DNA from: a virus
Lineage: Duplodnaviria > Heunggongvirae > Uroviricota > Caudoviricetes
IMG/VR virus record: IMGVR_UViG_3300029887_000004
DNA length: 57,747 bases
Direction: 5' to 3' (one strand)
Shown: positions 88-34,268 of the stretch, piece after piece
How the letters are laid out: the number at the start of each line of letters is the position of its first letter
Numbering within the stretch: position 1 is the first letter of the stretch
Notes under the pieces: generated by a model
What the model was told of the DNA's origin: nothing
Databases searched by the model: none
Seen by the model: only the letters and a program-made list of their open reading frames with translations
Program-made: the position numbers and the translations under genes

Positions 88-570
88 CTACCGTTTACAT
101 TTTAGAGGTGTCGCAATAACGCCACTTCGAATAAGTGGAGTGATAAAATTATCAGACTGAAATGATAACGGATATCCAATCATTAACGCATATTCAATTG
201 AAGATATTGGAAAATCTTCCGTTATAATATCTTCTTTTGTAATCCAAGATATTTTTAGCTTTCCTACATATTCTGGTGAATCGATTAGATCATTTATTCC
301 AATTACTGCAACGTCATATTGTGGATGTAAATATGGTTGGATACGTATTTCATTGTTTAGAAGATTCACTTGATCGTTTTGCTCAATAGGGACAGAAAAC
401 AAAGCGTTTTTCATATTCTCAAATATATGCCTATTCGAGACTAATGCATAATTTTCTCGATTATTTGCATGGTATTTATAGAAAAATCCTGTACCAATTT
501 TACATTCATCATTTTCTTTTAATACAGTAATTTTTGTTACAGTATGAATCAAATTCTCTTTTGTAAGCAT
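88..570 (-). pseudogene. Trypsin-like serine peptidase, C-terminally truncated
   Basis: GTGFF, SNRH (His), DVAVI (Asp) and IGYP motifs present; ORF stops at PLKCKR before the catalytic GxSGxP motif. Confidence 0.6.
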
Positions 571-598
571 ATTTTACTTCTCCTTAATTAGAAAGCAG

Positions 599-940
599 GT
601 GATTATTATCAATCAAACAGCAAACAAAACAGATCATCAGGAATCTATACAAACAATACACACAATAGAATTAACCACTAATGAGTATAATACAATCAAA
701 TATTTTTTTGAAAATATGGAGTCTTTATATAACTATGGACTGATTGATAAGGAAATTGTCCCATATAAAATTTTCTCCAATGCAAAAAATCATTTTATGA
801 AAAAGCCAAAAATTACAATTACTAATTTAAAAATGACAAAAGCTTCAGATACTATTACTCATCTAGTTTGTGGTGATCAAAGTGTTAAATCTGTTTATCA
901 AATAGCTACTTCTCCGTCACAAGAGGATATTGTTCTCTAA
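599..940 (+). CDS. Hypothetical protein
   Basis: 113-aa ORF with GTG start after a purine-rich tract; 3' end overlaps the convergent protease gene. Confidence 0.5.
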   Translation: MIIINQTANKTDHQESIQTIHTIELTTNEYNTIKYFFENMESLYNYGLIDKEIVPYKIFSNAKNHFMKKPKITITNLKMTKASDTITHLVCGDQSVKSVYQIATSPSQEDIVL

Positions 941-1640
941 TAAAATCAAGTATATAAAACGCATATACTTCCTGAGAAAGACCAAGACTTTCTTCATACT
1001 TCTTTTCAAATTCGTCTGTAGTAATTTTAAGAGAACGTATTTTAGCAGAATGATGTATGCCAAGTAGTTTGTATTTTTCATTAACTTTGATATAAACTGG
1101 GCATCCACTTAAACCTTCTTTGGTATTGGCATAAGTGAAGAATCCGTTTTGAAAGTTGAACTGAATAGATGATGCAGTATTTCCTTTAATAATAAAAGGA
1201 TACGCTAAGATTGTGTACCCTAATGCTGCTTGATAGCCAACGAGATAGACATCTTCCAAATCATTAAAACTTGATCTGTCATCATTTAAAATAATGTCTG
1301 ATTCTTCTATAAAATGAAAAATTATATTGTATTTATTCAAGGCCTTGATTATTGTATTTGTTATATCGACATAGGCGATATCAAGAGAAGGATGTTTTAT
1401 AGGAGAGACAGTTATATTAAAAGTTATACCTGACATTTCTTCGTTTTCGTCTATAGCGGATATAACAAAAGATATATTCATAATATTTTTGTCAAAACAA
1501 TGACCGCAAGAACAAAGGAAATATGATTCTCCTTGAGATGTTGCTAATTTTATGATAAAACCAGTAAAAGAGTGTCTTGGTTCTTCAGTATTATCAGCAA
1601 TAAATACTGTTGTATATTTCAAGTCATTTACACTAATCAT
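906..1640 (-). CDS. Trypsin-like serine peptidase domain protein
   Basis: TGF, SCGHCF (His), DIA (Asp), VGY and GLSGCPV (Ser) motifs; GAGAGG SD. Confidence 0.7.
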   Translation of the reverse strand: MISVNDLKYTTVFIADNTEEPRHSFTGFIIKLATSQGESYFLCSCGHCFDKNIMNISFVISAIDENEEMSGITFNITVSPIKHPSLDIAYVDITNTIIKALNKYNIIFHFIEESDIILNDDRSSFNDLEDVYLVGYQAALGYTILAYPFIIKGNTASSIQFNFQNGFFTYANTKEGLSGCPVYIKVNEKYKLLGIHHSAKIRSLKITTDEFEKKYEESLGLSQEVYAFYILDFIREQYPLVTEK

Positions 1641-1673
1641 ATCAATTTTCCTCTCTTATGTTTTATGGTTATC

Positions 1674-1830
1674 TTAAAAATCATATCCACAATTCTTACA
1701 GTGAAATTGTTTGCCAATTTTGCTCGATGCAATGTCTACCATAGCAGTTGATACAGCTCTATTTAACGTGCTGATATTCTCTATATCTGTGCTGCCACAT
1801 GCAGGGCAATGTGGAATAGCAAGTTTGCTG
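1674..1830 (-). pseudogene. Remnant of a Zn-ribbon protein C-terminal domain
   Basis: Manual translation gives IPHCPACGSTDIENISTLNRAVSTAMVDIASSKIGKQFHCKNCGYDF*, paralogous to the C-termini of 2114-2701 and 5152-5715; no in-frame start codon. Confidence 0.7.
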
Positions 1831-1884
1831 TTTTTGTTTTTATTACTATAAAATTTTCTTTTATGTTTTCCGAGGTAACAAAAA

Positions 1885-2079
1885 ATGAATAATAAACCAT
1901 ATGTGTCAAATATTGATCCAAATAAAAAAGAATCATGTGGCGATTATGATATTATTCTATGTGAAACAATTTATGATAAAAACGGCAAACCACTACCTCC
2001 ACTTTTTGCTGGATCAGACAAAGTTAATATCGAATTAATATTCAAAATGTTTGAACAATTCCCAATGCATCAGGTCTAA
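1885..2079 (+). CDS. Small hypothetical protein
   Basis: GAGGT SD then ATG; 64 aa. Confidence 0.55.
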   Translation: MNNKPYVSNIDPNKKESCGDYDIILCETIYDKNGKPLPPLFAGSDKVNIELIFKMFEQFPMHQV

Positions 2080-2113
2080 GTGTTCCTTAGCTTTTTTCAT
2101 ACGTAGAATAATT

Positions 2114-2701
2114 TTACCACTTATAACCACAATTTTTACATTCAAACTGACTCTTAGCAGTTTTACTGAACAAGCCAAACAGCCCAGCACCTACAGCTTT
2201 CTTAGCTGCTGAGATTTTGATGATGTCGGTAGAACCGCAAGTCGGACAGTGAGGTTGATTAGTAGATGAAGGAGTAGATTGCTGCTGCGAAACTGGTTGG
2301 CTCGGTTTTTTACGCTCCTCTTCTGCCCATTCGTGTAATTTGCGGCGGAAATTTTGATGAGCTTCTTCACTATATTCATCTGTTTTTCCACAACGTTCGA
2401 GCAGAGAGTAAATATATGCGTCTTGTTCTTCTGCTGTCTTAGGATATGCTGTTGCTTTCCCAGTTGTTCGCTCATTTTCTATAGTCTGATACATTGGAGC
2501 GTGACAATATTCACACATAATTGTTGCCACAATACTGTTTGTATCACTCCAATTTCCACATTTAGGGCATACAAAAGTTTTTGAAAAATCTGTAAGATTA
2601 GCATCCTTAATATACTTTGCTATGGGGAAACTACAATCTGGACAACTTTCCGCATATTGACTTAAGATCTTTTTACATTCGGGACAAAAGACTTTGCTCA
2701 T
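2114..2701 (-). CDS. Multi-zinc-ribbon protein
   Basis: Six CxxC pairs; C-terminal CPTCGS...GLFGLFS...CKNCGYKW module; GGAGG SD. Confidence 0.75.
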   Translation of the reverse strand: MSKVFCPECKKILSQYAESCPDCSFPIAKYIKDANLTDFSKTFVCPKCGNWSDTNSIVATIMCEYCHAPMYQTIENERTTGKATAYPKTAEEQDAYIYSLLERCGKTDEYSEEAHQNFRRKLHEWAEEERKKPSQPVSQQQSTPSSTNQPHCPTCGSTDIIKISAAKKAVGAGLFGLFSKTAKSQFECKNCGYKW

Positions 2702-2753
2702 ATAGCCATTACCTCCGTAAATATTTCCTAGTTGAGTTGAAGTCTATACGACA

Positions 2754-3089
2754 TCACTTTAGCTTTTTGCAAATGGTATATAGAAAATTAACAATTTCGC
2801 CCATACCTGTAATCAGCAAACCACCGATAACAGATACAAAAAGATAAAAGAAAAAGCTAGAATAAGAAAGATAACCATAATCATCTTTTCCTATTAAGAA
2901 AGATCCAATAAAACCACCTACTAGAACAATTATTCCCACAATCTTCAATGATTGTCCAACAAGCGTTGTATAAATTTCTTCCGATGTATTGGATGTTGCC
3001 GGAGTTTCAATCTTTTTCCCGCAAGATGAACAAGTTCCTTGGCTCTGCTCTTCTGCTGTTAATTCCTTGCCACATTCTGTACATTTCAT
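2754..3089 (-). CDS. Zinc-ribbon membrane protein
   Basis: CTEC/CSSC followed by two hydrophobic helices; start moved to the ATG after an AAGGAG SD. Confidence 0.7.
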   Translation of the reverse strand: MKCTECGKELTAEEQSQGTCSSCGKKIETPATSNTSEEIYTTLVGQSLKIVGIIVLVGGFIGSFLIGKDDYGYLSYSSFFFYLFVSVIGGLLITGMGEIVNFLYTICKKLK

Positions 3090-3106
3090 AACGTTAAATC
3101 TCCTTA

Positions 3107-3724
3107 TCATTCATTTGTTGAAAAACTTATCATCATCGTTTTAATACAGGGACGATAAAACAATTCAATTTTCATATTGGATAGTTCATCCCAATCATAT
3201 ACTTTTAAATCATTTTCAATATCGTAATGATAAGTGTTTTTACCATATAATTTATCCATTTTTTCAATTATATGATCTAATTGAGTATTATCTAATTCAA
3301 CATTTTCCGCACTCCATATTAAAAGTCCTAGTTCATCATCATCTTGGTCGTTAGCTACCAATAATAACTTTCCATCTATATTCCATATTTTAACAGAATT
3401 GTTTACCAACATTCCTTTATGGTCAGATGTTGAACTTATTATGTATTTTTTAGATTTATTAACAGTCGAAATATCCTTTCCAAAGTTCGAATAATATTTT
3501 TTAAAAGGATCAGCGTCATGAGTAGTGAACGATTCTTTCTTAAGGAAAAGGACTGCAAAGACTAATATTACTATACCTATACCTAATACAATTCTTTTAT
3601 TTTCATTGTCTTTTTCATGCGACTTGTCATAGTATTCCTTAATATTGTATCCGCATGACGGACACCTTTCAGCAGAATTAGAAACATTTTCACGACCACA
3701 TTTTGGACATTTGATTAATGCCAT
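3107..3724 (-). CDS. Zinc-ribbon, single-TM protein with extracytoplasmic domain
   Basis: MALIKCPKCG...CPSCG followed by one TM helix; GGGAGG SD. Confidence 0.7.
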   Translation of the reverse strand: MALIKCPKCGRENVSNSAERCPSCGYNIKEYYDKSHEKDNENKRIVLGIGIVILVFAVLFLKKESFTTHDADPFKKYYSNFGKDISTVNKSKKYIISSTSDHKGMLVNNSVKIWNIDGKLLLVANDQDDDELGLLIWSAENVELDNTQLDHIIEKMDKLYGKNTYHYDIENDLKVYDWDELSNMKIELFYRPCIKTMMISFSTNE

Positions 3725-3767
3725 GTAGTTTTCCCTCCCCACATTATACTAAATATTGTGAACCAAT

Positions 3768-4868
3768 TTATTTTTCAGAAATGTTTAATGTACAATCATA
3801 TTGTGGTTTATAATTATTATCCAAACCAAATTCGACTTCTACGGGACTTTTATCATCTGGTAAAACCCAAACCAACTGTGTTTTTAATGTTCCACCATTT
3901 TTTACACCAGTAAACGCGTTAGAATAATCGAATATTCCTTGTTCCGATGTATTTCCAGGACTATCTAATTCAACACCATTTTGATAAATCTTTACAAGGC
4001 ATGGTGTGTTATTGATAAAATTTCTAGCTTTATCCAGATTATTTGTGTATTCAAAATCCATTACTAATACGATTCCATATGACGGGGATTTCAAAACAGA
4101 TGTATTTTTTAATATTGCATACGAATTATCATTTCCAATTTTTTCTGGTACATTGTCATTCAGCCACGATATATTATAATCGGATTCTTTTGTTTCTTGC
4201 GATTCATCTTGTTTATCTTCAATGTCTTTGCCGCCAGTTAAAGTTAATGTCTTTGAATATGCAGGATTGTAATTTGAATCTATTCCAAAATCAATTTCAA
4301 CTGGGTTCATCGTATCTTTAAGAACCCATACAAGTTGCGTATTTATTATTCCTCCATCTTTTACATTTGTAAATGCATCACTATAATCATAAACACCCGC
4401 TTCGGATGTTATCCCTGGTCTATCTAATTCTATACCATTTTGATATGGTTTTACATCACAATTGCTATCATTAATAAAATCTGATGCTTGCGCAGTATTG
4501 TTGGTATATGTAAAATCCATAATCAGTAATGTGCCATATGAAGAATTAACAATTCTTGTATCTTTAATTAGTGCTTTTGAATTATCATTTCCAACTTCTA
4601 TTGGTACTTCACTATCTTCCCATGAGCATGTTACATTTGACACTTTATCTGTTGTTAAATTGCTTGATTGATCTGAAACGTCTATAGCTGTGTCAGTCGT
4701 TTCATTATCTTCTGAAATAATCTGTTTGATGCTATCAGTATTAACTGCCTCTTTGATTACACTAGAAGCTGATGTTGCAGATGATTGTCCACAACTTGTA
4801 ATAAAAAAAGAAAAGCATAAAAGACCTGTTATCCGTATTGTGTGTTTTCTTTTCATGTATTTTCCCAT
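3768..4868 (-). CDS. Lipoprotein with two tandem DUF5067-like beta-sandwich domains
   Basis: Lipobox-like FITSC, Ser/Thr linker, two repeats of DFxYTN...YQNGxELD...VKxGG...TQLVWVL...PVExxFG. Confidence 0.65.
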   Translation of the reverse strand: MGKYMKRKHTIRITGLLCFSFFITSCGQSSATSASSVIKEAVNTDSIKQIISEDNETTDTAIDVSDQSSNLTTDKVSNVTCSWEDSEVPIEVGNDNSKALIKDTRIVNSSYGTLLIMDFTYTNNTAQASDFINDSNCDVKPYQNGIELDRPGITSEAGVYDYSDAFTNVKDGGIINTQLVWVLKDTMNPVEIDFGIDSNYNPAYSKTLTLTGGKDIEDKQDESQETKESDYNISWLNDNVPEKIGNDNSYAILKNTSVLKSPSYGIVLVMDFEYTNNLDKARNFINNTPCLVKIYQNGVELDSPGNTSEQGIFDYSNAFTGVKNGGTLKTQLVWVLPDDKSPVEVEFGLDNNYKPQYDCTLNISEK

Positions 4869-4897
4869 CCGCTTATTTATATATTTGATAATTTTAA

Positions 4898-4930
4898 ATT
4901 ATACCACAATTGTTATATAAATCCAACATT
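4898..4930 (-). promoter_or_regulatory. Sigma70-type promoter, copy 1
   Basis: Minus strand TTGGAT-17nt-TATAAT with extended TG; 30/33 identical to 5749-5781. Confidence 0.7.
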
Positions 4931-4948
4931 TCTAGAGGTGAATATAAA

Positions 4949-5149
4949 ATGTACGATAGTATTTTAATTGATTATGGGCTTGAAAAATTCCACAAATATG
5001 TTATGGCAAATTCAATCATAGATTATCCATTTCCGCAGACTGACTATCCTTCCATATATACTGATCCATCTACTCTTACTGAAGAGCAGCGTATATTGCA
5101 GGAGAAAATGAAATGTCTTGTGGAACAATTGAAGATAGACAAGGAGTAA
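4949..5149 (+). CDS. Small hypothetical protein
   Basis: GAGGTG SD then ATG at 4949; converges on the gene ending at 5152. Confidence 0.55.
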   Translation: MYDSILIDYGLEKFHKYVMANSIIDYPFPQTDYPSIYTDPSTLTEEQRILQEKMKCLVEQLKIDKE

Positions 5150-5151
5150 TC

Positions 5152-5715
5152 CTAAAAATTATTCCCACAATTTTTACAATGCCACTGCTTCCCTACCTTA
5201 TCAGATGCAATTCCAAACATGCTGGTAGAAAGCATACGCTTAAACATGCCAATCTTCTCGATATTTGTGGATTGGCATACTGGACAGTGAGGTTGATTAG
5301 TGGATGGTGGATTTTGATAGTTGTTCTTTTCTCTATATTGTTTTAACCGCTCTTCTTCTTCATGACGTCTTTTGTTATATGCATTCTCATTAAATTGATC
5401 TTCCACATTAAGATCTTTTAGGTCATTAAGAATGCTTTCTTTGTCACACCCGTGATGATTTAACAAATCTACCATTTCATATTTAGTTTGTATAAATGGA
5501 ACGCGACAATATTTACAGTTCACTCTTCTACAATGACCAGCATAATTAATTTCATGAACCCCACATCTCGGACAGATAAAACCTCTAGTAAAATCATTAA
5601 TATTATTTTCTTCTAGATATTTTTTGATTGGTCGTCCACAATGAGGACAAGTTTCAGCATAGATACTAACTTCTCTATCACAATCTGGGCAATATATCAA
5701 ATTTTGAAATCCCAT
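5152..5715 (-). CDS. Multi-zinc-ribbon protein, paralog of 2114-2701
   Basis: Same CxxC layout and shared STNQPHCP motif; GGAGG SD before ATG at 5715. Confidence 0.75.
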   Translation of the reverse strand: MGFQNLIYCPDCDREVSIYAETCPHCGRPIKKYLEENNINDFTRGFICPRCGVHEINYAGHCRRVNCKYCRVPFIQTKYEMVDLLNHHGCDKESILNDLKDLNVEDQFNENAYNKRRHEEEERLKQYREKNNYQNPPSTNQPHCPVCQSTNIEKIGMFKRMLSTSMFGIASDKVGKQWHCKNCGNNF

Positions 5716-5748
5716 ATTACATCCTCCAATACACATTAAATTGATTAC

Positions 5749-5796: not shown

Positions 5797-8700
5797 TTGC
5801 AGTTAAAAAATTTAGGTGATTTATTTGGTAGTTTTGGAGAATTAAACTTACTGAGAAATAAATATGGAAAAAACTCAACATTTGACACATTAAGCAGTAC
5901 ACTACAACAGTCTTTTAATGAGTCTTTTAAAGTTGGGACAAATGGAATTAGTGAATTTTCCACAGAGCAAATTAAAACTAAAGCATCTGTCATGGGCTTA
6001 AACGATGCGTTGACAAAACAAGCATTATCTCTTGCGAATGACGCTGGTTTATATCAAAAAGCTGCGGCAGGCAATCTTACATTTAGTAAGGCTATAGAAT
6101 TAAATATAAATAATGCAAGCGATTTAGTTGACGCCTTGATGAGTAGTAATTCTGAAGTCTTAAAAAAATATAAAGATATTGCTGATATGATAGCTAATTC
6201 AGGTGAAAAAGGCAGCGCGGCATATAATGAGTTTGTTAAAGATCTCATTGATAATAATCAAGATTTAGGTGACTCAATTGTTGAATTAGCACCCAAAGTA
6301 GAAACCACAAAATCCGCATTTTCTGGTTTATCAAACTATTTTAAAGGTCTTCTTGCTACATTTACAAATCCGATTTTCCTTTTAACCACAGCAGTTACCG
6401 TAGGCGTTGCAGCATGGCAAGGCTACAATCAATCTGTCCAGGAATCCATCCAGCACACGAAAGACTCCATAGCAGAGATAGAGGAACGTAATAAGTCTAT
6501 TGATGACAATATTAGTAAAGCACAGGAACTAAGGGATTCTCTTGATTCTGGTACTCTTACGGAGCAAGAAGCATACAACACGAAGAGTCAATTGCTAGAT
6601 ATCCAAAGTCAATTATCAGACTCTTATGGAGAACAGGCGGATGGAATTGATCTTGTAAATGGCAAACTCGATGAGCAGATCGAGAAGATGCAGCAGCTCA
6701 AAGTTGAAAATGCGAAAAGTTGGCTGAATGATTCGGATAATGAGAAGAATTACGAAAAAGCTAAAAAGAAAATGACCAAAGATGATTATGAGTCATTCTT
6801 TGGTAATACACCTACTTTAGCTATGCTCGGCTCGGAACCACAGAAATCTGAATATACAAATTCAGACGTATATAAAGATGCGCTGAAGCGTTACCAAAAT
6901 AGCAAAACTCAGATCGAAGAAATCCAGAAAGCGGCAAAAAAAGCTGGACTAAAACAGTACACAAGTACAAGCACAGGTCAGTTCCAACTCGGTTTTGAAA
7001 ATGAAACAGTTACAGGAGCAGATGAAAAATTAAATTCCTTCCTCGCTACTGTTAAAGAGCTGAAACGGCAGTTTGAGGACGAGGGCAAAAATACTGATTA
7101 CTTTGACAACATTATCAGTTCCGCGGAAGATGCAGAATCTTCCTATAAAGATATTCTGGATAAGCATCAAGAAATATATCAAGAGTATCTGAAAAATTCC
7201 ATGCTTGCAGAAGGTTACGGTAACAATAAACCAGCAACTGTATATCAGCAATATGCGGATGCAGTGGACAAATATAACGAAGCTTTGCAAAGTGGAGATA
7301 CTTCTAAAGTTAAAGAAGCAAAGACTGCATTAGATGGCGTAAAAGATTCCGTAGATAATATTGTCAGTACGGATTCCGGTAAGAAATACAAGGAGTTGTT
7401 CGATGAAATTGCAGATGGTATTGATACAGCATCCGAAAAAACTTATGAGTTCAAGGAACGGCTGTCCGGTAGAGGTGCAGATAAATTAAACAATACTGTA
7501 CTTTCTAAACTCAAAGAGCTGAAGAACTACACTGATATTGACCTCAAGAGTATCAATCTTGATACAAGTGATGTTGTTGCTGGTAAAGATGCTCTACGCA
7601 TGGCAGTAAACGAAGCAATGGATCTCGGAATTGTTTCCGATGATTCTGCTGAAAGTGTGGCAAAAGTTGTTGATCTCTTAACGGATATGGGAATGACCGC
7701 GACCGTATCCATGGATCAAGTGGATGATTCCTTCTCAGAAGTCAATACTACAATTCAGCAAGCGCAAGCAAATTTGGAAACACTCAAGACGATTATGTCC
7801 GAATCTGTTTCGGGAGCAGGAATTTCTGCGGATAACGTGAAAGCATTTAGAGAGATGTTCGGAGATGATGCAGAGCGGGCGCTGGAGAAAACGGCAGACG
7901 GATATCATATCAACCGTGAAGAACTTGCAAAATTACAGGCACAACAATCACAGATGAACCGAGCTGATTATCTTTCCGGTTTGGCAGATCAGCAGGAAGC
8001 TCTGAGACAAATCGAGGAGCAGATCGCCGATGCAATGGTAAAAGGTCAAGATGTCAGCGGCTTACAGGCACAGCGCGAAGGTATTTTGGATAATATTTCC
8101 TCTCTGGAGGATTTAGCATATCAGTATCAAACTGCTACTTCTGCTTATCAACAATGGCAGGATGCTATGTCCGGTGGTGAAGAAGGTAATATGTATGATT
8201 CCATCCAGGGTAACATGGAATCCATTAAAGATCTCTACGACAAAGGACTTGTAGGAGAAAACAAATTCCGAGAGTTTGTTGATCTTATGTCCAATAAGGA
8301 TCTGACCAATGCCAGTGTAGATGAAATCGTTGCAGCTTACGAAGAATCCTATCCAAAGATGGAGCGTTACTTTACAGAAGGCCAGGAAGGATGTCAAGCA
8401 TTCTTACAAGATATCTCTAACCTTAATTCTGAATGGGCGCACATGAATGAAGATGGTTCCTGGGATATTAATTTTGGTGTTGGCAACGATCAAGAAATTG
8501 CGGATGCACTGGGAATTGATGTGGAAGCTGTGCAATCAGTACTCAGAAAACTGCATGATTTTGGCTTTGACATCGACCTCGATCAGCCGGTTAAATCTCT
8601 GGAACAACTAAAAACTGAAGCTCAGTCTGCAAAAGAAGCTCTTGATGGAATGGGTGAAACTTCTCTTGATAGCATCAATTTGGACACAGATTCATTCAGT

Positions 8701-11663
8701 GAAATCACAGATGATATTGACAAGGTTAAGGAATATATTCAGCAGATCAATGATGCTGATTTGGAGCCAGAAGTTCGGACAGAGAGACTGGAGCAAGCCA
8801 ATAATATTCTTGACTATCTGGTACAGAAACAGCAAGAAGCTGGACAAAATAACATTGTAATTGATGCGGATGCAAGTTCTGTCGATCAAAAGATTTCTGA
8901 TCTGAAGAGCCAATTGGAGCAGTTTAGAAACGAAGACGGTACGATTCCTGTTAATGCCGATACACAAGATGCTGTCAACAGTTTACAATCCCTGTACGCT
9001 ACGAAACAGAATCTTGAAAATACTCCTGCCATTCTACAGGTTGATACTTCACAGGTTGACGGAGAACTGGGCAATGCGATCGGAAAATTACAGGAATATC
9101 AGAATGCTGTAGAGATTCTGAACGCACAGAACACGATGAAAACACAGGGCATCGACATTGATACCACAGATGCACAGCAGAAAGTACAACAGTTGGCAGG
9201 ACAGCTACAGAATCTTGATGCTGATACGACAGCGAAGTTAGGTCTTGATGATACTGATTTTCAGTCGAAACTTTCTAATATTGCTACTCATCCGATTGAT
9301 GTAGGAATAGGGGTAAATCTTGATCCGAATGCTCTTGCCGACGTCTCTGCAAAGATTTCTGGAATTACGCCAGAATTACTTGTAAAAGCTGGTGTAAACG
9401 AAGAAGCGATTGTAAATTATACGCCGAAAGATAAGGACGCTACGGTCAAATACAAAGTTGACCATAGTGTGATTGACAGTTATGATCCGGAAGACAAAAA
9501 TGCTACGGTTACTTACGGTGTGGTTGTTTCCGGACTTGAAAATCTACCAGGAAATAAAACAAGAAGTCTGACTTACAATATTAAGACAAATGGTACTGTT
9601 CCAAGAGTAAATGGTACGGCACACGCTATAGGAACTGCTCATGCGGCAGGTACTGCAAGCCGTAATTGGGGGCTTGCTCACAATGAACCACATGCGCTTG
9701 TAAATGAATTGAAACCAGAAGCAATCGTTCGGGATGGTAAGGCGTTTATCTTGAATGGTGGCGATCCTACTTTTGCAAATCTGAAGAAAGATGATGTTGT
9801 ATTTAACGGTGATCAGACGGAGCAGTTGCTTGAACATGGTTATGTTACCGGCTCCCATGCACAACTTGCAGGTGGTGGTTATTCTTTAGGTAGTGCGTTT
9901 TCTGGCGGATCGGGAAGATTTAATGTTGGAAGTTCTGGAACAAAAGCAGATTCTTCCACATGGGAAGACAAAAAGAAACAGAATAATACCAGCCATAACT
10001 CATCTTCTGGTAGCAGTAGTAGTAGAAACAGTGGATCATCTTCTGGTGGTTCAACTCGATCCTCATCCGGTGGCTCTTCCGGAGGAAGTTCCGGCAGCTC
10101 TTCCACCAAAGAAGCAACCGAGGAAACCTTCGACTGGATAGAAGTATTTCTTAAGGAAATGTCTCGTGCTACTGAGATTGCAGTTGATAACATTGATCGT
10201 GCTATCGGTCTGGCACAGAAGCAGACAAAAGCATATGACGCTATCAGTAAAGTTCAGCAGGAATTAACTGCAAATCAGCAGTCAGCCAACAAGTATTTAC
10301 AGCTTGCGGCGAACGTGGGGCTTGATCCTTCTTATATCTCTAAAATCCAGAATGGCACACTTGATGTGGAAAAAGTAACCAACGAGGATCTGAAGAAAAA
10401 GATTGACGAGTATAAGGACTACTACAGTAAATATGAATCCGCTGCTGATAACGTAGCCAAACTCGAAGATAAAATTACCGAACTCGCTGAGAAACGTCTG
10501 GAAATTATTGAAAAAGAATATGATGCGATTGTAGACATCAATGATAAAATCAAAGACGTAGCCGATTCCAAAATATCCTTGAATGATGCACTTGGCGTAG
10601 CCATCGACAATCCAGACAACTATGCAAGCATAAATAAATCCATCAAGGCACAGGAAGATACTTACAATCAGCTGACGAAAAAGCTTTCCGATTATCAGAA
10701 AGAAGTAGATTCACAGCTTTCCAGTGGTTATCTTAAGAAAGGTTCCGAAGCTTATCAATCTGCTATGAAAAATATTCAAGATTTCACAGCTAAGATTTAC
10801 GATGCTTCTACCAGCCTTCTTGAACTACGGGATAAATTGGATCAGATTAAAATTGATACCATCCAAAATGTAATTGACGGAATCAAACGTAATTCGGATA
10901 TTACGGAGAAATATATTTCTTACCTGCAATCCCAGAATCGTGATGTGCCAGAGAATCTATACACTGACCGTATAGATAATAATAACGCTCAAGTACAGCA
11001 GAATCTAAAGCAGATGGAAATATACCGGAAGAAACAGGCGGTTCTTGATGTCAATTCTAAATCGTATCAAGATTATGCAGAAAAGATTCAAACGCTAAAA
11101 GAAAATACTCTGGAACTGATTACGGACAATGAATCTCTTCAAGATAGTATCTATGAGCTACGTTTTAAGCCACTTGACGATGCTATCCAGAAGTACAGTG
11201 ATCTTGAAGATGAGCTAAAAAGTTTCCGCGACCTTCTGAACGATGATGCATTCCTTGATAAGCAAGGACGTATCACTGAAGAGGGATTGGCACAAGTTGC
11301 TCTCTTACAGCAGAGTATTGGTACGGCAAAACAAAAAATTGCAGATTATACCACGGGTCTGCAAAAACTAAAAGAGTCTTATGACAATGGTGTTATTTCC
11401 TTAACGGAATATAATGACAAGTCAAAAGATTACCGTGAAGGTATTCAAGGTTCGATTGCAGATGTGAAATCATATCAGGACAGTCTGGTTGATCTGTATA
11501 AGAACGCTATGAGTACAGAGGTTGATTATCTTGATAAAATAATCAGCAAGAGAAAAGAAGCCCTGACACAGCAGAAGGATATGTACGACTATTCTAAGAA
11601 GATTAATTCTCAGAATAATAACATAAATAGCCTTAAAGCCCAAATCATGGCTTTAGAAGGGGT
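5797..11663 (+). CDS. Phage tape measure protein, exon upstream of the group I intron (start uncertain)
   Basis: ~1950-aa helical Ala/Gln/Glu/Lys-rich ORF upstream of Dit/Tal-like genes; hydrophobic segment near the N-terminus; no SD at the TTG. Confidence 0.8.
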
Positions 11664-12140
11664 GAAATATTTGCTCCTGTAAAATCTATTTAATTGCGGG
11701 AAGTCCCCATAAGGTTTAATTGGCTACAACGTAACCGGAAACGGTAGGCGTGAATGCGGTAGAGTTATAAACTCACAGTCCATTATTGGATAGAAACCAT
11801 AAAAATAATTAAACTAGGGATAACCGGGTGTGCAAGTCACTCAGACGCAGCGAACTTCCTAAGTCAGAAATGATATGGAAGACGTTCAGAGACTAACCCA
11901 TATTGGGTGGCGCAATGCCTTAATGTAAGACCGCAAGCGATTGGCGGTTTGAAAAATATAGACTATTTGAATATTAAGTGATATTATAAATTTGAGGCGT
12001 TCTGTTTTATGTCTACTGATGAACAGGCAGAACACAGTGCGCATACAGATAAAGAATAGAATGGCATCTAACAACAAAAATTTGAACACATTTATTAAAA
12101 TTTACAGACAATAAAGTGGTATTTTTGTTGATACTGCGAA

Positions 12141-12169
12141 TAGATTTTTCCTTTAGAATTGCATATAAT
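12141..12169 (+). promoter_or_regulatory. Putative intron-internal sigma70 promoter
   Basis: TAGATT-17nt-TATAAT. Confidence 0.5.
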
Positions 12170-12175
12170 AAATAT

Positions 12176-12385
12176 AAGAAAGGGGAACCTTTCTCAATAA
12201 ATCTGGTGTGATGCAGCGAAATGCGACTGCTAGAAATACAACCGTAGAAGCACATACCGGGCTAGGAACTGGTGTGTGTGGAGGTTTACAAAGGTAAGGG
12301 GTTTACCATAGCCTAGCTAGGTGAAAACCGAAAGAAAATCCCACAATGAAGTAAGAGAGTTAGCACCAGTGACTCTCTTATTTTT
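12176..12385 (+). ncRNA. Candidate structured RNA with pseudoknot, ending in an intrinsic terminator
   Basis: Stem 12250-12279 whose loop GCUAGG is complementary to CCUAGC (12312-17); GGU-GAAA-ACC hairpin; terminator UAAGAGAGUUA/UGACUCUCUUA plus U-tract (12352-12385). Confidence 0.6.
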
Positions 12386-12402
12386 ATGCACAAGGAGATA
12401 AA

Positions 12403-13002
12403 ATGGATGCAATATCAACAGCGTTGACATCTTTTAAAGATTTATCTTTATATGAATATAAATTTAGAATTGCGTATAAAAAACAATTATATGATCTTGA
12501 ACTGAATTTTGACAATGAAGATTTTTATCATTGCGCCGGATTGCAGTATTTAAAAGACATAGATATTCCCAAAAACGCTTCAAAGTTGTTTCGTGAAATT
12601 GTAAACGGCAAAATTACAGACGACTATTTGGAGAAAAGTAAGAAGTACCCATTTCCAAAACCAGGAATAGATGTCCAAAAAAGAATTTTGCACCTAGGTG
12701 TTTTAAGAAAATATATAGAAGCAGATAACGCAATTTGGAAATACGTGAAAGAGCAGAATGTCGGAAGTCAGATAAATGCTGATTATATGATAGTTTCTAC
12801 AGTTGATAATGTGGAAGCATACATATTTCTAAGAAAAAGATCGTCTGACCCAAACGATTTAAAATACTGTATCTGCTCATTTTTTGTTAATCCGATCAGA
12901 ACATATAATGGAGCAAAAGCATATTGGTTTTATAAATCAAAAGTCAATTTAGAAACAAATGAAGAACAAATATATTATCAGAAACAACCACAGGAGCAGT
13001 AA
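12403..13002 (+). CDS. PBECR4-like (BECR-fold) putative RNase, intron-encoded
   Basis: LxF...FYHCAGLQY motif and C-terminal SFF strand recalled as typical of PBECR4; AAGGAG SD; no GIY-YIG, HNH or LAGLIDADG motif. Confidence 0.65.
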   Translation: MDAISTALTSFKDLSLYEYKFRIAYKKQLYDLELNFDNEDFYHCAGLQYLKDIDIPKNASKLFREIVNGKITDDYLEKSKKYPFPKPGIDVQKRILHLGVLRKYIEADNAIWKYVKEQNVGSQINADYMIVSTVDNVEAYIFLRKRSSDPNDLKYCICSFFVNPIRTYNGAKAYWFYKSKVNLETNEEQIYYQKQPQEQ

Positions 13003-13020
13003 ACCTACTGCTCTTTTCTT
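12992..13020 (+). terminator. Terminator after the intron ORF
   Basis: GAGCAGT-AAACCT-ACTGCTC followed by TTTTCTT. Confidence 0.6.
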
Positions 13021-13146
13021 ATACCTCAAATCTTAATTACAATCCCTCAAATAAAATTCAAATAGAAGATATAGTCCCATGCCATACGAAAGTATGGAGA
13101 GCAGTTATGCTCTTGTCCACGTAGCGAGTGGATGAAAAGAAAAATG

Positions 13147-14638
13147 AAATAATCTCGATGCTCAATCTCAAGTTAAGAAATTGAAGCAGCAGCTCAAAGA
13201 AGCGCAAGAAGATCTCGATGATACGAAACGTGACCATTCAAACGATATGCAGTCTCAAGGTTACGATAAGCTCAGTGAAGATCTGAAAACTTCTCTTGAC
13301 AACACCGAGTATGAAATCAGTCATAATGCCGACAAACAGCTTGAGATCATCAATTCTATGCTTGACAAAGCCGTGTCCTCTTACCAAGAAGCATACGGTA
13401 AAATCAATTCTATCATCAAAAATACTGGCTGGGTAGGTAGTACGGATTTTAATACTGCTCAGTCTGATCTAAACACAGAGACAGGTGTTAAGAATCAAAA
13501 TTCCAACGCATCACAGTCTCAATCCAGTGCAAATAAAAATCCATCCAGTACCGCATCTGGTACAAAAACTGATCCAATCAACAGTAATTCAAAAGCAAAC
13601 AGTGATCTTGCGGATCAATTAGTCAAACCGGAAGATACAACGAATCGTAAGGTTGCGGAACTAAAGGTGTCTCCTACTTCTACGACACTGGAAGAGGGTA
13701 AATCCACAAGTATTACTGCTACAATCAGACCGAACGATGCAGCTAATAAGACTCTTGCTTGGAAATCAAGTAATGAATCAATTGCTACTGTATCCAATGG
13801 TACGGTAAAAGCAAAGAAACCTGGCTCTTGTACGATTACTGCTACCACTACCGATGGAAGTGGACTGTCTGCAAAGGTATCAATTAAGGTCAATGCAAAA
13901 CCAAAACCACCAAAGCCACAGCCGAAACCACAACCAGCAAAAACTGGTGGAGATGGAATTCCTCGTGTTGGCGATGTCGTAACGTTTACAGGATCTTACT
14001 ACAATGACTCTTGGGGTATGTCTCCAAAAGGTAGTAGATTTTCCGGTCAGCCTGGTGCTGTTGTTATTGATTCTTATACAGCTAGGGAATATGGTGGAAA
14101 TGGACGTACTACTGGTGATTTTAAGATCCATATCAAAAGTGCGCATGATCCTAATTATAGTGATCTTGGATGGGTACGTCTCAGTCAGATTAGTGGTTAT
14201 GAAAAGGGTACGGATCGTATTCATGGCGATCAACTTGTATGGACAAACGAAAATAAAGACACCAAACATCATGGCGTTTCAGAATTAATCTATCGCAAGA
14301 AAGATGGTGCTGTCCTTACACCTGTTCAAGATGGAGATTCTATTCTACCAGCCGATTTCGTTAGTAATTTAGCTGCATTAAGTGCAATTGATCCACGGGA
14401 ATTCGGTATGAATGTAAGTATTACGCCAAATCTGGTGCAGACGAATATTCCTCAGAACATCAGCAATGTCGGAAATGTAACGGTAACAAATCATTATGAT
14501 TCATTACTCACAGTTGAAGGTAATGTTGACAGGGATGCTCTGCCTGGATTGCAGAAAATACTGGAAAAATCATATACGTATACAACGAAAAAATTGGCTG
14601 ACGAATACGGAAGACTTGGACACAAGATAATTATGTAA
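13147..14638 (+). CDS. Tape measure protein, 3' exon (contains a Big_2 Ig-like domain)
   Basis: In frame with the upstream exon after splicing; PNDAANKTLAWKSSNESIATVSNGTVKAKKPG Ig-like motif; ends in a TMP-type C-terminus. Confidence 0.85.
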
Positions 14639-29813: not shown

Positions 29814-29852
29814 ATGGGGAATATCAATTAATTTTGGTATTCCCCATTTTTT
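29814..29852. terminator. Bidirectional-type terminator between endolysin and tniQ
   Basis: ATGGGGAATA...TATTCCCCAT followed by a T-tract. Confidence 0.65.
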
Positions 29853-31336
29853 TACGCTTTTTTATTATTTTTTTGTATTTTTAGGTACGTTTCAGGATAT
29901 CTGTATTGTAGTATATCCATAGCTTTTATCATATTTTTTTCTATTATGTGTACCATACCCTTTAATTCGCTATATGAAATATAATCGCTGTCAATTTGAT
30001 CGACAATATATTTTATTTTATCGACCCAATAATCCTCTATTGGTTTTTCTTTTGTTTTAATATACTTATAGCATTGTGGCATATAATAAAAATCATTTCT
30101 TCTGATGTCTTGACAAATTTGTTGCATGAAAGCATTAAATCCTCCTACAGTTAATCTTCTAACTTTGCCAGAATTCTTAAAATATAAGTCAATATAATAT
30201 TCAATTTTAGGATAATACTTTTTATCCAATTCAGAATACCTCTTTCCTTTAGGCGATATATTCCTACTGCTACTATGTGCATAATTTTGGCTTATTAATT
30301 TTTGTTTTTCAACTTCATATTGACCGTTAATTATTTTACTTACATTACAAGGTAAAATATGATATTGTTTCGCAAGCTTGTTTATGCCGTTATCTTTTGT
30401 ATACTCTGATCGAATTCTTTCGATTAATTCCGAATCAATTTGTTTCGCCGTTTTACATACAAAAATATCAGATATTTGTATATCTAAAAATAATAATATA
30501 TGAATTGTTCTAAGTGGATTCGCTTTATTTAAGAATATACTACTCATTGCTTTTATTTGACAAGTTTCCTTTATGTTATTGTCAGATAAATATTGTTTAA
30601 AATTATCTAAAAATACCGACTTGTGTTGGAGCCATGAAAGCTGATTGATATATTTCTTTTGAACTAACTTCCTGTAAAATACGTCAAACATCGTAATACC
30701 GTTCTTAAGACTCTGTTTTCTTACTACTAATTGATATAGGTATTTTGCAGCCTTGATTTCACCGATGGTTCCCATATCATATGAATAATCATCATTAATG
30801 CAATTTTCAGCCGTTAGAAAATTTATTATTCTTGAATTGTTAACATGAACCGATGAATCTTTGAGTTTACATCCATGAATTACACAAACATTAATTTCTG
30901 GAATTTGATGAAAAGCATTCCAATATGTTTCGTGATATTGCTCTCGATTTTCTTTTGTACATAATGGACAATATTTTAGAAATATTTTTTGATGTTTATG
31001 TTTTGGTCTTGGGGAAAGGTATTCTAAAAAACTTTTGTCATTTGATATGAGCTTTCTCAACGCATTTTCTTTATCCGATTCGTTTAGAAATACAGACCAG
31101 TAAAAAAGCATAGTATGGTTATAGTATAAGTCATTAATAATATAATTTTTCGATATAAAAGAACGTAGTACATCACTTGGTTCGTTTATATAAAATATTT
31201 CGATGTATTCATTCGGTCGTTTAAACACGATTTCTTTAAAAGATTGATTACTCTGTACATTTATATCTTGTTTCAATCTTGAATATATGCTATAAAACAA
31301 TTCATAGTCATATATTTTAGGAAAATAATTTAACAT
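29852..31336 (-). CDS. tniQ: Tn7-like target selector TniQ/TnsD
   Basis: FPKIYDYELFYSIYSR N-terminus; YCPLC...HQIPEINVCVIHGC Zn motif; 494 aa (TnsD-sized). Confidence 0.85.
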   Translation of the reverse strand: MLNYFPKIYDYELFYSIYSRLKQDINVQSNQSFKEIVFKRPNEYIEIFYINEPSDVLRSFISKNYIINDLYYNHTMLFYWSVFLNESDKENALRKLISNDKSFLEYLSPRPKHKHQKIFLKYCPLCTKENREQYHETYWNAFHQIPEINVCVIHGCKLKDSSVHVNNSRIINFLTAENCINDDYSYDMGTIGEIKAAKYLYQLVVRKQSLKNGITMFDVFYRKLVQKKYINQLSWLQHKSVFLDNFKQYLSDNNIKETCQIKAMSSIFLNKANPLRTIHILLFLDIQISDIFVCKTAKQIDSELIERIRSEYTKDNGINKLAKQYHILPCNVSKIINGQYEVEKQKLISQNYAHSSSRNISPKGKRYSELDKKYYPKIEYYIDLYFKNSGKVRRLTVGGFNAFMQQICQDIRRNDFYYMPQCYKYIKTKEKPIEDYWVDKIKYIVDQIDSDYISYSELKGMVHIIEKNMIKAMDILQYRYPETYLKIQKNNKKA

Positions 31337-32538
31337 ATTTCCACCTCTTCAACAGTAAAAGTATTTTTAATAAGAGTTAAGAGATCATAGTTATTAGATT
31401 GTGAATAATTGTATAAGTCAGCAATATTAACACTATCCGAATGATGAATTGTTATTTCTTTATGTGGTTTATTGACTGTTTGACTATTTTTCTTTTGCAC
31501 TTTTTCTACTTGCATAGACATCATCCCATTGTATGACGCATTAAAAATATCAATACTTAATTTCTCTGTGTTGCTCATAATGGCTAATTCCTGTGCTCTA
31601 TAAAATAACGATACAACAGTTGACGTCACTCCGTTTGAATGAGTATACAACCAATTTATGATTTTTTCTGATGGTTCTGTGTATTGTTGCACATATTGAA
31701 ATTTTAATAGATTTTTGCAAAAATGTATAAAATCATCATCATAATCATTTTGTAAATATCGCAAGCCTATTGTCCTTCGTTCCAGATGTGGTGCGCTTTC
31801 AAACCAATGTAGACATTCTGGTGTTCCAACCATACATACACTAATTCCACTACTATTTATAATCTGTGTTAACGCCCCAATAAGTTTATCACCGTTTTTA
31901 TTATTAACTACGTTTTGAATCTCATCAACAATAAGTACCCCAACATGATTTAAACATATTTGGCTAACAAAACCGATTAGTCTATCCGTAGTATACCGTT
32001 GTGCTATCTGTAAATAATCTCCATCCAATGTAGCATCAAGAATACGAACGATTTCTAACAATAGACTTTTTACAGAAGAGTCAAATGGGCATTGCACAAG
32101 TATAAAAGGAGCAATTCGTTGATATGGGTCTGTTGTTTCGATAAAATGATTTCCGAAAATCAATGAGATCGCTCTGGTAATAGCACTACTCTTCCCTATG
32201 CCAGAAACTCCAATGATTGTAAACGAATCAGCACCACCTATAATACCATTATACGTTTGTATGGTGTTTGTTGTATTTTCGATTCTTTGCTGTTTTACCA
32301 TCATATCATTTTCTTTTTTCTTAATCGACCTGAGTAATGCCATATACAATTTATTATATACATCAACAGATAATTGTGATGGAATATAAATATCATATAA
32401 TTCTGATAACGCCAGAAGACGAGTTGGCATTGTTTCATTGGCAATGTTTATATTATAGTTTGGTAATATCTTCAGTCGTTCTACTAATTCGTTTTCACAT
32501 AAAAAATCAGGCAATTGTGAAAGTAATTTACCGTTCAT
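31330..32538 (-). CDS. tnsC: Tn7-like AAA+ ATPase TnsC
   Basis: Walker A GVSGIGKS, CPFDSS, Walker B LIVDEIQ, VGTPE. Confidence 0.88.
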   Translation of the reverse strand: MNGKLLSQLPDFLCENELVERLKILPNYNINIANETMPTRLLALSELYDIYIPSQLSVDVYNKLYMALLRSIKKKENDMMVKQQRIENTTNTIQTYNGIIGGADSFTIIGVSGIGKSSAITRAISLIFGNHFIETTDPYQRIAPFILVQCPFDSSVKSLLLEIVRILDATLDGDYLQIAQRYTTDRLIGFVSQICLNHVGVLIVDEIQNVVNNKNGDKLIGALTQIINSSGISVCMVGTPECLHWFESAPHLERRTIGLRYLQNDYDDDFIHFCKNLLKFQYVQQYTEPSEKIINWLYTHSNGVTSTVVSLFYRAQELAIMSNTEKLSIDIFNASYNGMMSMQVEKVQKKNSQTVNKPHKEITIHHSDSVNIADLYNYSQSNNYDLLTLIKNTFTVEEVEIC

Positions 32539-34268
32539 CTTTTAACTCCTCCCCTAGCAATCAACTCGATCTCATTCATCAAATCAATTTTCGCCTGTCT
32601 TGCATTATTTTGTTCGGAACGTAGTGTTGTTTTGCTCTGTTCTTTGATCTGTTCCACTTCATCCAATTTTCTATTCTTATATCTGCTTTCAACCAATACG
32701 AACGGCATGAAATCGCCCTTCTCTACTGTCCATACTACAGATACATCATCTGGATCGTAAGCAACCTTAACATCTCCACCTTGCAGGAATCTTTCGGCGC
32801 AATCATCCCGTTTATACCGCATCCCATTTACCACTAGACCACGCCTAGTAAATGTCCCAATGGTACGTGGGAGCAGATATAGGATTATTTTCGCGGTGTC
32901 ATGCGGGAATGAAATTAAATTTGCGCCTGGTTGCCGTCTTCCCCATTCCCATATACTGGCTGCATATGGCTTTACTCCATCATGAATCATAGATTGTGTG
33001 TAAGGGAATCGTTCTATGAGCCGTTGACTGTTATAGTAAATGATACAGCGTAAGATGATCTTCTCAAAATCAAACATCGTCAAGCAAGCATCTAGTCTGT
33101 AATCTCTTGCACCTCGTTCCTGGAAGTCCGGATCAATCACACCTTTGCCCTTGAGAAGTGGTTTATACATGGATTGGATGATGTCAAAGAATTTCTCTAC
33201 AGCACCTTTCAGCTCTGGTCTGTATGGTGGAAGATTTACCATGGTCACGCCTGTTTCTGTAATCTGTGCAAAGGATTCTGATGTGTATTCCCGTCCCATA
33301 TCAGTTACAAAGATGCCAGGTAACTCTTGCACGTTCCACTGGGATTTGTCTAGTGGGATACCAAACTTTCTACACCATTCTGTTTTGTCGGTAAGTATAT
33401 TTTGGAGCAGATGGCATAAACTCTTTGTATCGTTATTCCATGAGAGAACATAGCCATAACACATACTACTGTAAGCATCAATGCAAGTGGTTAGGATCGG
33501 ACGACCTTTTAAGGTACCAGTTTCGTCAATAAGGTAGATATCACATACGGTGGAATCAAACATACCAGTGCCGATATTGGTTGCAAACTCACGGATACCA
33601 TCTCCTAGCAAGGGACGATTGTTACGCTGGTAATTTGACAGTCCATCTCTGGAAATAAAATAAGTTTGGAGCTTCTTAGTCTTCCGGTAAAAGTATCGGA
33701 ACTGATAAAAGGATGGATGGTCGGATAGTAACTGTCCCATGCTGTCACAATACTTTTCTTTTAACATCATCTCATATGCTGTAACAAGACTGTTTTGTCT
33801 GCGTGTATAGAAGAACTTATTCAATGCCCATCTCATGTTCTTCTCATCTTTGGTCAGTACCTTTTCTTTCGTATGAACTTTTGGTGCAAGTACAGTGATG
33901 GTCTGAAAGATTAGATATTGATACAGATAGCGGCGGATAGTCTGCTTACTAATGTTATGCTCTTCTGAGATGGAAGAGATGATGTTTGCAGTTGCTGTGC
34001 TTTCTCCTAAGTGGTATAGGATCGGTGCAATCAGTGTGTACCGCTCATGTGCAATGCGCATCTGATCGGATGTAAGCTCCTGTTCGGCTGGTGGGGCGAT
34101 GTTGAGTGCATCATATAATTGCTTTTCTGGCAATGGGGTATATTGCGTTCTGAGCGTCCAGAATGGCATTTTCGGATGGAGACAGTCAATTACAAGGGTC
34201 TGGTTATCTGATGTCTTTAAAATTCTGTAGAACGTGTTATTGATATAGGCTATATCAGCTTTCTGCAT
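32535..34268 (-). CDS. tnsB: Tn7-like DDE transposase TnsB
   Basis: FDST (D), GRP...IDAYS, VTDMGREY (D), PPYRPELKGAVE (E); Mu-like C-terminal YDPDD. Confidence 0.9.
   Translation of the reverse strand: MQKADIAYINNTFYRILKTSDNQTLVIDCLHPKMPFWTLRTQYTPLPEKQLYDALNIAPPAEQELTSDQMRIAHERYTLIAPILYHLGESTATANIISSISEEHNISKQTIRRYLYQYLIFQTITVLAPKVHTKEKVLTKDEKNMRWALNKFFYTRRQNSLVTAYEMMLKEKYCDSMGQLLSDHPSFYQFRYFYRKTKKLQTYFISRDGLSNYQRNNRPLLGDGIREFATNIGTGMFDSTVCDIYLIDETGTLKGRPILTTCIDAYSSMCYGYVLSWNNDTKSLCHLLQNILTDKTEWCRKFGIPLDKSQWNVQELPGIFVTDMGREYTSESFAQITETGVTMVNLPPYRPELKGAVEKFFDIIQSMYKPLLKGKGVIDPDFQERGARDYRLDACLTMFDFEKIILRCIIYYNSQRLIERFPYTQSMIHDGVKPYAASIWEWGRRQPGANLISFPHDTAKIILYLLPRTIGTFTRRGLVVNGMRYKRDDCAERFLQGGDVKVAYDPDDVSVVWTVEKGDFMPFVLVESRYKNRKLDEVEQIKEQSKTTLRSEQNNARQAKIDLMNEIELIARGGVKR

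Follow-up and report, generated by a model that had tools for sequence, protein, structure and literature searches.

Structure of the Locus

The window (the whole 57,747-nt stretch of phage DNA analysed here) contains a long gene interrupted by a predicted self-splicing group I intron. One loop of this intron, L8, holds a compact cassette in which a likely promoter, a structured RNA, a predicted terminator, and a gene for a predicted RNase of the PBECR4 family follow one another (Table 1). An earlier, sequence-only reading had proposed that a new pseudoknotted RNA and a PBECR4-like RNase form a type III-like toxin–antitoxin module here; it missed the family to which the RNA belongs (drum), the group I intron setting, and a second pseudoknot.

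Table 1. Features of the split gene, the intron, and its cargo (positions are those of the window).
Feature	Position	Strand	Basis or remark
Exon 1, likely tail tape-measure gene	5797..11663	+	ORF 5797-11682 extends 19 nt into intron
Group I intron, 1483 nt, predicted self-splicing	11664..13146	+	Pairings, Rfam halves, intron-less alleles
Loop L8, exchangeable cargo slot	11973..13055	+	Between P8 arms 11963-11972 and 13056-13065
Likely sigma-70-type promoter	12141..12169	+	-10 TATAAT 12164-12169; weak -35
Short 5' hairpin	12176..12194	+	Fold; common to ToxIN, TenpIN-like, CptIN-like, and other drum cassettes
CUGGUG, complement of terminator loop	12203..12208	+	Subclade feature
Hairpin 5' of the Rfam model	12213..12230	+	Part of the RNA in this subgroup; GCAG/CUGC here, GCGG/CCGC in L038
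Drum RNA core, two pseudoknots	12240..12346	+	RF02958 match; pair counts, 31 sequences
Predicted intrinsic terminator between RNA and ORF	12352..12385	+	Stem pair probabilities 0.88-1.0
Ribosome-binding site AAGGAG	12392..12397	+	Sequence
PBECR4, predicted RNase toxin, 199 aa	12403..13002	+	PF18813 E 2.4e-20
Terminator-like hairpin closing the cassette	12992..13023	+	Scan; also behind other cargo
Exon 2, tape-measure-like gene, Ig-like domain	13147..14638	+	Frame open from 13148; Big_2 E 8.4e-16

The intron splits a single gene into the 1961-aa open reading frame (ORF) that ends at 11682 and the ORF at 13181. The Rfam model Intron_gpI (RF00028) matches in two halves (E 0.0034 and 0.00037; 26.2 and 23 bits vs. 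a gathering score of 50), which are sub-threshold because the model is split by a 1.1-kb insert. The expected pairings are complete, namely P1 with its U.G pair (6/6), P10 (5/5), P3 (5/5), P7 (5/5), and P8 (10/10), and the terminal G is at 13146. Removal of the intron joins the exons in frame (...ALEGV followed by NNLD...), and the junction is confirmed by four intron-less alleles among 29 related loci (L031, L033, L034, and L037), whose coding sequence runs through this codon without a break. The interrupted gene probably encodes a tail tape measure, a name that we base on its size (2452 codons) and on the tail gene DUF6558 that follows; Pfam gave no hit to a tape-measure domain in it. One sequencing run was checked and gave a single 211-nt contig on the 5' part of the intron and none on the RNA or the junctions, which is uninformative either way. 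A search for the exon/intron junctions in 401 genomes returned short partial matches alone, and an annotated phage collection gave no match. The related complete records are phages of 176–217 kb with integrases in four of four, so the related phages are likely temperate, and the nearest relatives of the protein are found in the Lachnospiraceae. Elsewhere in the window, a three-gene transposon-like unit (rve/Mu-type transposase, TniB, and TniQ) follows the endolysin gene at 29852–34268, and a minus-strand run of accessory genes at 88–5736, three of them with N-terminal zinc ribbons and one with DUF5067, lies just before the tape-measure-like gene.

Among the small elements of the cassette, the promoter that the sequence-only reading had called stands in its -10 half, a perfect TATAAT conserved in sister cassettes, and falls short in its -35 half, which matches at 3/6 positions. 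The same promoter stretch precedes ToxIN and TenpIN-like cargo in sister phages. The terminator called before the ORF is borne out by a stem (12352–12362/12370–12380) with 11/11 pairs and a T-run up to 12385, which leaves 17 nt to the start codon (ATG, 12403). Neither promoter nor terminator was reported by a consensus scan, so both calls rest on folding and conservation. The hairpin motif that closes the cassette is also present in L192, L196, L232, and L238. A terminator finder was positive at 29 of 30 PBECR4 loci, a count of little weight because the finder is permissive and was run without a control. No other plus-strand ORF of at least 50 aa exists in L8, and an antisense 80-aa ORF (12013–12255) was rejected as a gene, as it overlaps both promoter and RNA.

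The Drum RNA

The core of the RNA corresponds to the Rfam family drum (RF02958), with 71 bits against a gathering score of 43 over model positions 1–112, and is the sole above-threshold Rfam match in the window. The RNA had been put forward as new, a claim that cannot stand, because drum was described in 2017 together with a protein association. In the portion of that work available to us (Weinberg et al. 2017; PMC5737381), drum RNAs have terminators at their 3' ends and lie rarely in 5' UTRs, their partner protein gene is found on either side and strand and is possibly DUF3800-related, and no hypothesis is called obvious for the DUF3800-linked motifs. The window shares with this published drum the full-length match, the 3' terminator, and the nearby protein gene, whereas its partner is PBECR4 instead of a loosely linked DUF3800 gene, and the RNA lies inside an intron.

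The region 12195–12390 is richer in G+C than the window (0.43 vs. 0.34), and the fold of 12170–12390 reaches -71 kcal/mol (z = -5.06), a stability attained by none of 200 shuffles. The RNA extends about 65 nt further in the 5' direction than the Rfam model. An 11-bp stem (12250–12260/12269–12279; 11/11 pairs) displays the loop GCUAGG (12261–12266), which forms pseudoknot 1 with CCUAGC (12312–12317); the loop match taken alone would arise by chance in 1.4% of shuffles. The sequence-only reading had suggested looking for covariation upstream of homologous ORFs, and a conserved structure was found there. Across 31 drum cores, pseudoknot 1 is 95.7% paired with double changes at 6/6 pairs, compared with 71% pairing in shuffles and 12–49% when the strands are slid, and pseudoknot 2 (12298–12302/12338–12342) is 80.6% paired, likewise with double changes at 6/6 pairs. 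These controls overstate the significance, because the structure was drawn from the same, related sequences; the covarying changes in both pseudoknots are numerous and varied despite this kinship. With its conserved GAAAGAAAA run and two covarying pseudoknots, drum is a pseudoknotted RNA with an A-rich strand, as type III antitoxins are.

The GC-richer RNA, the 11-bp stem, the GAAA hairpin, the CUGGUG/CACCAG match, and the 17-nt spacing of the terminator had all been located correctly by the sequence-only reading. The GAAA hairpin (12320–12329; 3-bp stem) was rejected as a conserved GNRA element, as the alignment of drum cores shows no conservation of it. CUGGUG at 12203–12208 is complementary to CACCAG (12364–12369) in the terminator loop, a match expected by chance in 3.6% of cases; the two motifs occur together in eight of 37 drum loci, singly in none, and are absent from the other 29, and no compensatory change was found among the 37. 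Their pairing was rejected as a family feature on these grounds, and it is a plausible candidate for a third contact in one subclade only. It had also been said that the RNA is not a tandem repeat, and indeed Tandem Repeats Finder (TRF) reported in the drum RNA region just a 9-nt unit at the promoter and no tandem repeats of antitoxin type.

The PBECR4 Protein

The assignment of the ORF to PBECR4 is upheld by the profile PF18813 (74.1 bits vs. a cut-off of 27). According to the available part of the polyvalent-protein study of Iyer et al. (2017; PMC5512222), a His and a Ser/Thr define the active PBECR nucleases. His43, Arg94, and Ser/Thr159 are present in 26 of 26 drum-linked homologues, and the structure model (pLDDT 92) places His43 in a helix (38–44) and Ser159 in a strand (154–162). 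The fold matches to known RNases are weak: RegB and BrnT at Z 3.6 (rmsd 4.0 and 3.9; 99 and 75 aligned residues), and colicin D and RelE at Z 2.9. Foldseek gave no match for the model at E 0.001, and no solved structure was found by sequence at E 1.

The protein had been judged unlike ToxN, and the profiles agree: the ORF matches none of the PF13958, NCBIfam, and PADLOC models, though these models hit sister cargo, and BLASTP against the ToxN of L012 gave a best E of 0.43. No ToxN-family chain appears among the 41 VIA rows of fold matches, a result that leaves room for a likeness to ToxN.

Drum and PBECR4 in Bacteria and Plasmids

When bacterial loci were collected via the protein, nine of 15 had a drum above the cut-off just upstream; of the other six, three had drums below the cut-off (E <=6e-4) and three had fewer than 190 bases of upstream sequence. 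In the reverse direction, an RNA-first search of 151 genomes of one family placed 7/7 above-cut-off drums directly upstream of a same-strand PBECR4 gene (6/6 without the seed genome), and an eighth hit, below the cut-off, had no adjoining PBECR4 gene. A phylum sample added one further drum hit, also upstream of PBECR4, and on Enterococcus plasmids the same order was found in both of the two loci examined (of 19), with 27% protein identity. Among 26 bacterial loci, no neighbouring ORF of at least 80 aa was common to any pair, so that no protein antitoxin is in sight. On one Enterococcus plasmid (L142:1–3085), the drum–PBECR4 pair directly follows a cluster of TIR-domain, DUF6414, and AAA-ATPase genes, a defence-island-like setting.

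PBECR4 genes are common, with 59 of 301 sampled genomes above the cut-off. There were 80 PBECR4 matches in the 301 genomes, and among the best 30 of these 80, which were examined, 13 have a drum and 17 have no Rfam match. Of the 17 non-drum loci, 15 carry a repeated hairpin RNA (TRF positive in 10/17, period 47–54 nt) and two a third type of RNA. In a protein tree of 43 rows the drum group is split from the rest with 100/100 support. In other words, the PBECR4 family as a whole has the order promoter, structured RNA, terminator, and gene, and one branch has tandem repeats.

Some further RNAs near PBECR genes should be mentioned in their own right. The third RNA type, upstream of PBECR4 in L114 and L116, has internal repeats and a terminator and no Rfam match. 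In L090, L093–L101, L107, L110, L111, L117, and L119, a non-Rfam RNA about 100–250 bases upstream of PBECR4 consists of three hairpins with a GNUG-loop-CAAC/CACC pattern, with an A-run and a short tail behind every hairpin. Hairpin loops 1 and 3 are complementary to each other's tails (loop 1 to tail 3, loop 3 to tail 1), loop 2 is complementary to its own tail, and the letters co-change between clades (GCUGA/UCAGC, GGUUGA/UCAACC, and GGCUAA/UUAGCC). This triple-hairpin RNA is likely an interlocked triple pseudoknot, to judge from these co-changes. Finally, in eight of 20 loci (L120–L139), the skipping-rope RNA lies 21–60 bases downstream of a PBECR2/PBECR3 gene, either a stand-alone one or one fused with a minor capsid protein; in one of L120–L139 it lies behind a ParE-like gene. 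Skipping-rope may be the RNA partner of the PBECR2/PBECR3 nucleases.

Exchange of Cargo in Loop L8

A scan for the P3/P8 junction of the intron gave 48 hits, of which eight were dropped as unrelated after three representatives had been viewed and 40 were kept; the pattern misses introns that carry just a long zinc-finger ORF. Drum and PBECR4 occupy L8 in 21 of the 40 copies, but many intron contigs are near-copies, and these 21 represent three alleles: that of the window, that of L192 (48% identity), and that of L032. ToxN is present in three (PF13958 E 1e-43 to 5e-39, with 31–34-nt repeats), a TenpN-like gene in four (E 1.6e-19; 70.5 bits, below the curated cut-off of 90), and a CptN-like gene in one (E 5e-17, with 41-nt repeats; 62.1 bits, also below the curated cut-off of 90). 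Eight of the 40 intron copies thus carry a ToxIN, TenpIN-like, or CptIN-like cassette of a related phage in the very same slot, preceded by similar versions of the promoter, the 5' hairpin, and the ribosome-binding site. The remaining cargo comprises NYN (two), PemK (three), DUF3990 (one), an RNA array (three), and unclear contents (two). Because the slot also takes NYN, PemK, and DUF3990, which have no known RNA antitoxin, L8 is a general nuclease/defence slot.

Five sister-intron loci have in L8 long zinc-finger ORFs, for which Pfam gave DUF4379 alone and which we take to be probable homing endonucleases. L196 and L232 carry introns with L8 cargo at another exon position. In L028 (182–2920) and L038 (1–2920), a long zinc-finger ORF is followed by a repeated piece of the 3' core and then by a second L8 cargo; such double-cargo introns are a possible route by which homing-competent introns gain cassettes.

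Three other side observations concern single introns. In L238 (2636–2754), the Rfam family Fusobacteriales-1 (listed as cis-regulatory) matches with 77.5 bits over the 41-nt repeats, which precede a terminator and the CptN-like gene and may represent a CptI-type antitoxin. In L222, at 40–200 bases into L8, a short pseudoknot-like repeat (GUGACGGUUCUGAC...) occurs two to three times and is not followed by a long ORF; it is possibly another orphan antitoxin RNA. In L232, the reading frame just before the intron core ends in a zinc-ribbon motif, which to our eye resembles the end of TnpB and is possibly part of a nested IS200/IS605 element.

Arrays of RNAs without Toxin Genes

In L038 (1590–2860), one promoter precedes, in this order, two drums, a TenpI-like RNA, a small ORF accompanied by a PemK-like gene, and skipping-rope. 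The first drum is 81% identical to that of the window and has a weakened terminator, the second is 82% identical to that of L032, and the third RNA is identical in 115/127 columns to the RNA before the TenpN-like gene of L023. No PBECR4 or TenpN-like gene exists within the array. The array was seen in four contigs (L038, L058, L073/L203, and L207), the latter two of which end at contig ends. Because the array keeps the RNAs without their ORFs, for drum as for the TenpI-like RNA, it can be argued that drum acts in trans.

The array is a candidate multi-antitoxin counter-defence cassette. A phage-borne antitoxin RNA without its toxin has a parallel in the pseudo-ToxI of phage phiTE (PMC3594212, in the part available). 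The array differs in that it joins RNAs of three systems, and its effect is predicted.

A Probable Type III-like Pair as Intron Cargo

From these observations we consider it probable that drum and PBECR4 form a type III-like toxin–antitoxin pair with a BECR-family RNase, carried as cargo in L8 of a group I intron. An antitoxin role of drum is likely, judging from its anatomy, conservation, covariation, exchange, and orphan copies, and from the missing protein partner. The comparison supports the type III-like reading, first proposed from the window alone, in five ways: (i) ToxIN, TenpIN-like, and CptIN-like cassettes replace the pair in this slot and start from the same promoter; (ii) the order promoter, RNA, terminator, and PBECR4 is fixed in bacteria, plasmids, and phages; (iii) toxin-less drums are strung with a TenpI-like RNA, and there is no conserved protein partner; (iv) the other main PBECR4 clade, with its tandem-repeat RNAs, has the classic type III layout, tandem repeats being what defines classical type III systems in the available parts of PMC12283969 and PMC12373285; and (v) drum RNA and PBECR4 protein identities are correlated (rho 0.64; 0/2000 permutations), and L054 and L066 have kept an intact drum beside a largely deleted ORF. 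On the other hand, the RNA of the window is no repeat array and its protein lacks likeness to ToxN, the slot also accepts nucleases that have no known RNA antitoxin, the fold matches of the modelled protein to BECR RNases are weak, and the correlation of identities also follows from joint inheritance.

If the pair works in this manner, most transcripts would stop at the terminator, and the RNA would, by type III precedent, be in excess over the toxin; the folded drum would bind PBECR4 and hold the RNase inactive. When transcription stops, because another phage infects or because the prophage or plasmid is lost, the RNA would decay first, and the freed RNase would arrest the cell, with abortive infection or addiction as the outcome. 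Housed in the intron, at the site that a probable homing endonuclease takes up in sister introns, the cassette would burden the essential tail gene little. When the tail gene is transcribed late, the polymerase must then read past two intron-internal terminators and would also transcribe the toxin gene.

Another way to read the pair is that drum serves PBECR4 as a cofactor, guide, or activator, so that RNA and protein together form an enzyme directed against particular RNAs, such as those of host defence, and the protein by itself does no harm. Drum is larger and more intricate than ToxI and has invariant unpaired bases, and host, phage, or CRISPR RNAs have been suggested as substrates of PBECR domains (PMC5512222, available part). 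We regard this as unlikely, though it survives best among the alternatives: the drum alignment contains no variable guide-like segment, a terminator that leaves the RNA in excess suits inhibition, and an antitoxin role is indicated both by the exchange with ToxIN-type cassettes and by the arrays, where drum stands in line with a TenpI-like RNA.

Second comes the idea that drum leaves the protein uninhibited and acts in cis alone, as a leader that governs how often transcription passes the terminator, for example through binding of PBECR4 or a ligand. No alternative fold that would open the terminator emerged from the pair-probability analysis, the complement of the terminator loop is missing from most drum loci, intact drums without an ORF exist in arrays, and partner genes of published drums lie on either side and strand (PMC5737381, available part). 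These points make a leader improbable, even though the RNA is upstream, with the terminator between, in every intact pair found, as one would also expect of a cis attenuator, and pairing of the 5' CUGGUG with the terminator loop is feasible. It should be mentioned that RCd22, the antitoxin of AbiF, is also cis-acting according to the available part of PMC12373285.

That the pair is a passenger with no present function in this phage seems very improbable. Broken homologues do occur, with internal stops in five of 30 PBECR4 loci and, in L054 and L066, deletion of most of the N-terminal half of PBECR4 behind an intact drum and terminator, and the near-identity of nine phage copies of the pair may just reflect recent spread; in the window, however, the ORF, the predicted catalytic residues, both pseudoknots, and the terminator are intact, and three distinct alleles entered this intron slot. 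Least credible of all is a homing nuclease or maturase of the intron with the RNA as a peripheral intron domain, since the pair, for all that it sits in L8 where sister introns have zinc-finger ORFs that we presume to be of the homing-endonuclease kind, recurs on bacterial chromosomes and plasmids with unrelated genes at its sides, and the same intron is found with other cargo.

Relation to Known Systems

At the sequence level, ToxIN/AbiQ, CptIN, and TenpIN share with the window the order promoter, pseudoknotted RNA, intrinsic terminator, and nuclease gene. The window differs by a single 210-nt RNA with two pseudoknots and no repeats, and by a predicted toxin of the BECR class; for want of repeats and of ToxN homology it is not a member of these systems. 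The adjacent protein antitoxin gene that marks type II systems was found neither among plus-strand ORFs of at least 50 aa in L8 nor among ORFs of at least 80 aa at the 26 bacterial loci. A closer parallel may be AbiF/RCd22 (PMC12373285, available part), also a prophage-borne RNA, terminator, and toxin, in which the toxin is not ToxN and the RNA neutralises by binding; AbiF thus shows that RNA antitoxins are not confined to toxins related to ToxN. AbiF differs in being an Abi_2/AbiD/F protein with an RNA of two short stem-loop motifs, whereas the pair of the window is known from its sequence. With the PBECR domains of Iyer et al. (2017) the window shares the domain and the predicted His and Ser/Thr active site, but its gene stands alone with an RNA of its own, and in the part of that paper available (PMC5512222) no RNA partner is named.

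Phage group I introns with a homing endonuclease carry this insert in L8 and reside in an essential host gene. The intron of the window shares with them the core pairings, the position of the insert in L8, and the essential host gene; in contrast, its L8 holds a toxin–antitoxin-like cassette equipped with a promoter of its own and with two terminators.

The literature consulted, which covers few subscription papers, contains no link of drum or PBECR4 to an antitoxin and no such cassettes in group I introns, and the available part of a recent record (10.64898/2026.08.28.747851) mentions no RNA antitoxin. Nothing earlier was found on the drum–PBECR4 pairing or the array; the 2017 supplement on the partner proteins of drum may anticipate part of this (the domain or a toxin–antitoxin idea). 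Drum and PBECR4 were each catalogued before; that they are paired, that drum would be an antitoxin, that an intron serves as their slot, and that arrays exist was met nowhere in the literature consulted.

As for the significance of these observations, drum, an orphan RNA singled out in 2017 as widespread, intricate, and without a hypothesis, now has a named partner. We offer, more tentatively and with some doubt, a wider picture in which the PBECR proteins may be a superfamily of RNA-inhibited toxins with drum, skipping-rope, and triple-hairpin antitoxins, phage group I introns may offer such cassettes swappable docking slots in an essential tail gene, free of cost, and strings of antitoxin RNAs from several systems may act as a keychain against the defences of hosts and rival prophages. 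If the toxin–antitoxin reading is true, BECR RNases would be an added class of toxin for RNA-antitoxin systems, whose toxins have so far been ToxN-like or AbiF. An intron that exchanges toxin–antitoxin cassettes where its endonuclease would be expected would be surprising to specialists in phage defence and introns, as would a phage array of toxin-less antitoxin RNAs.
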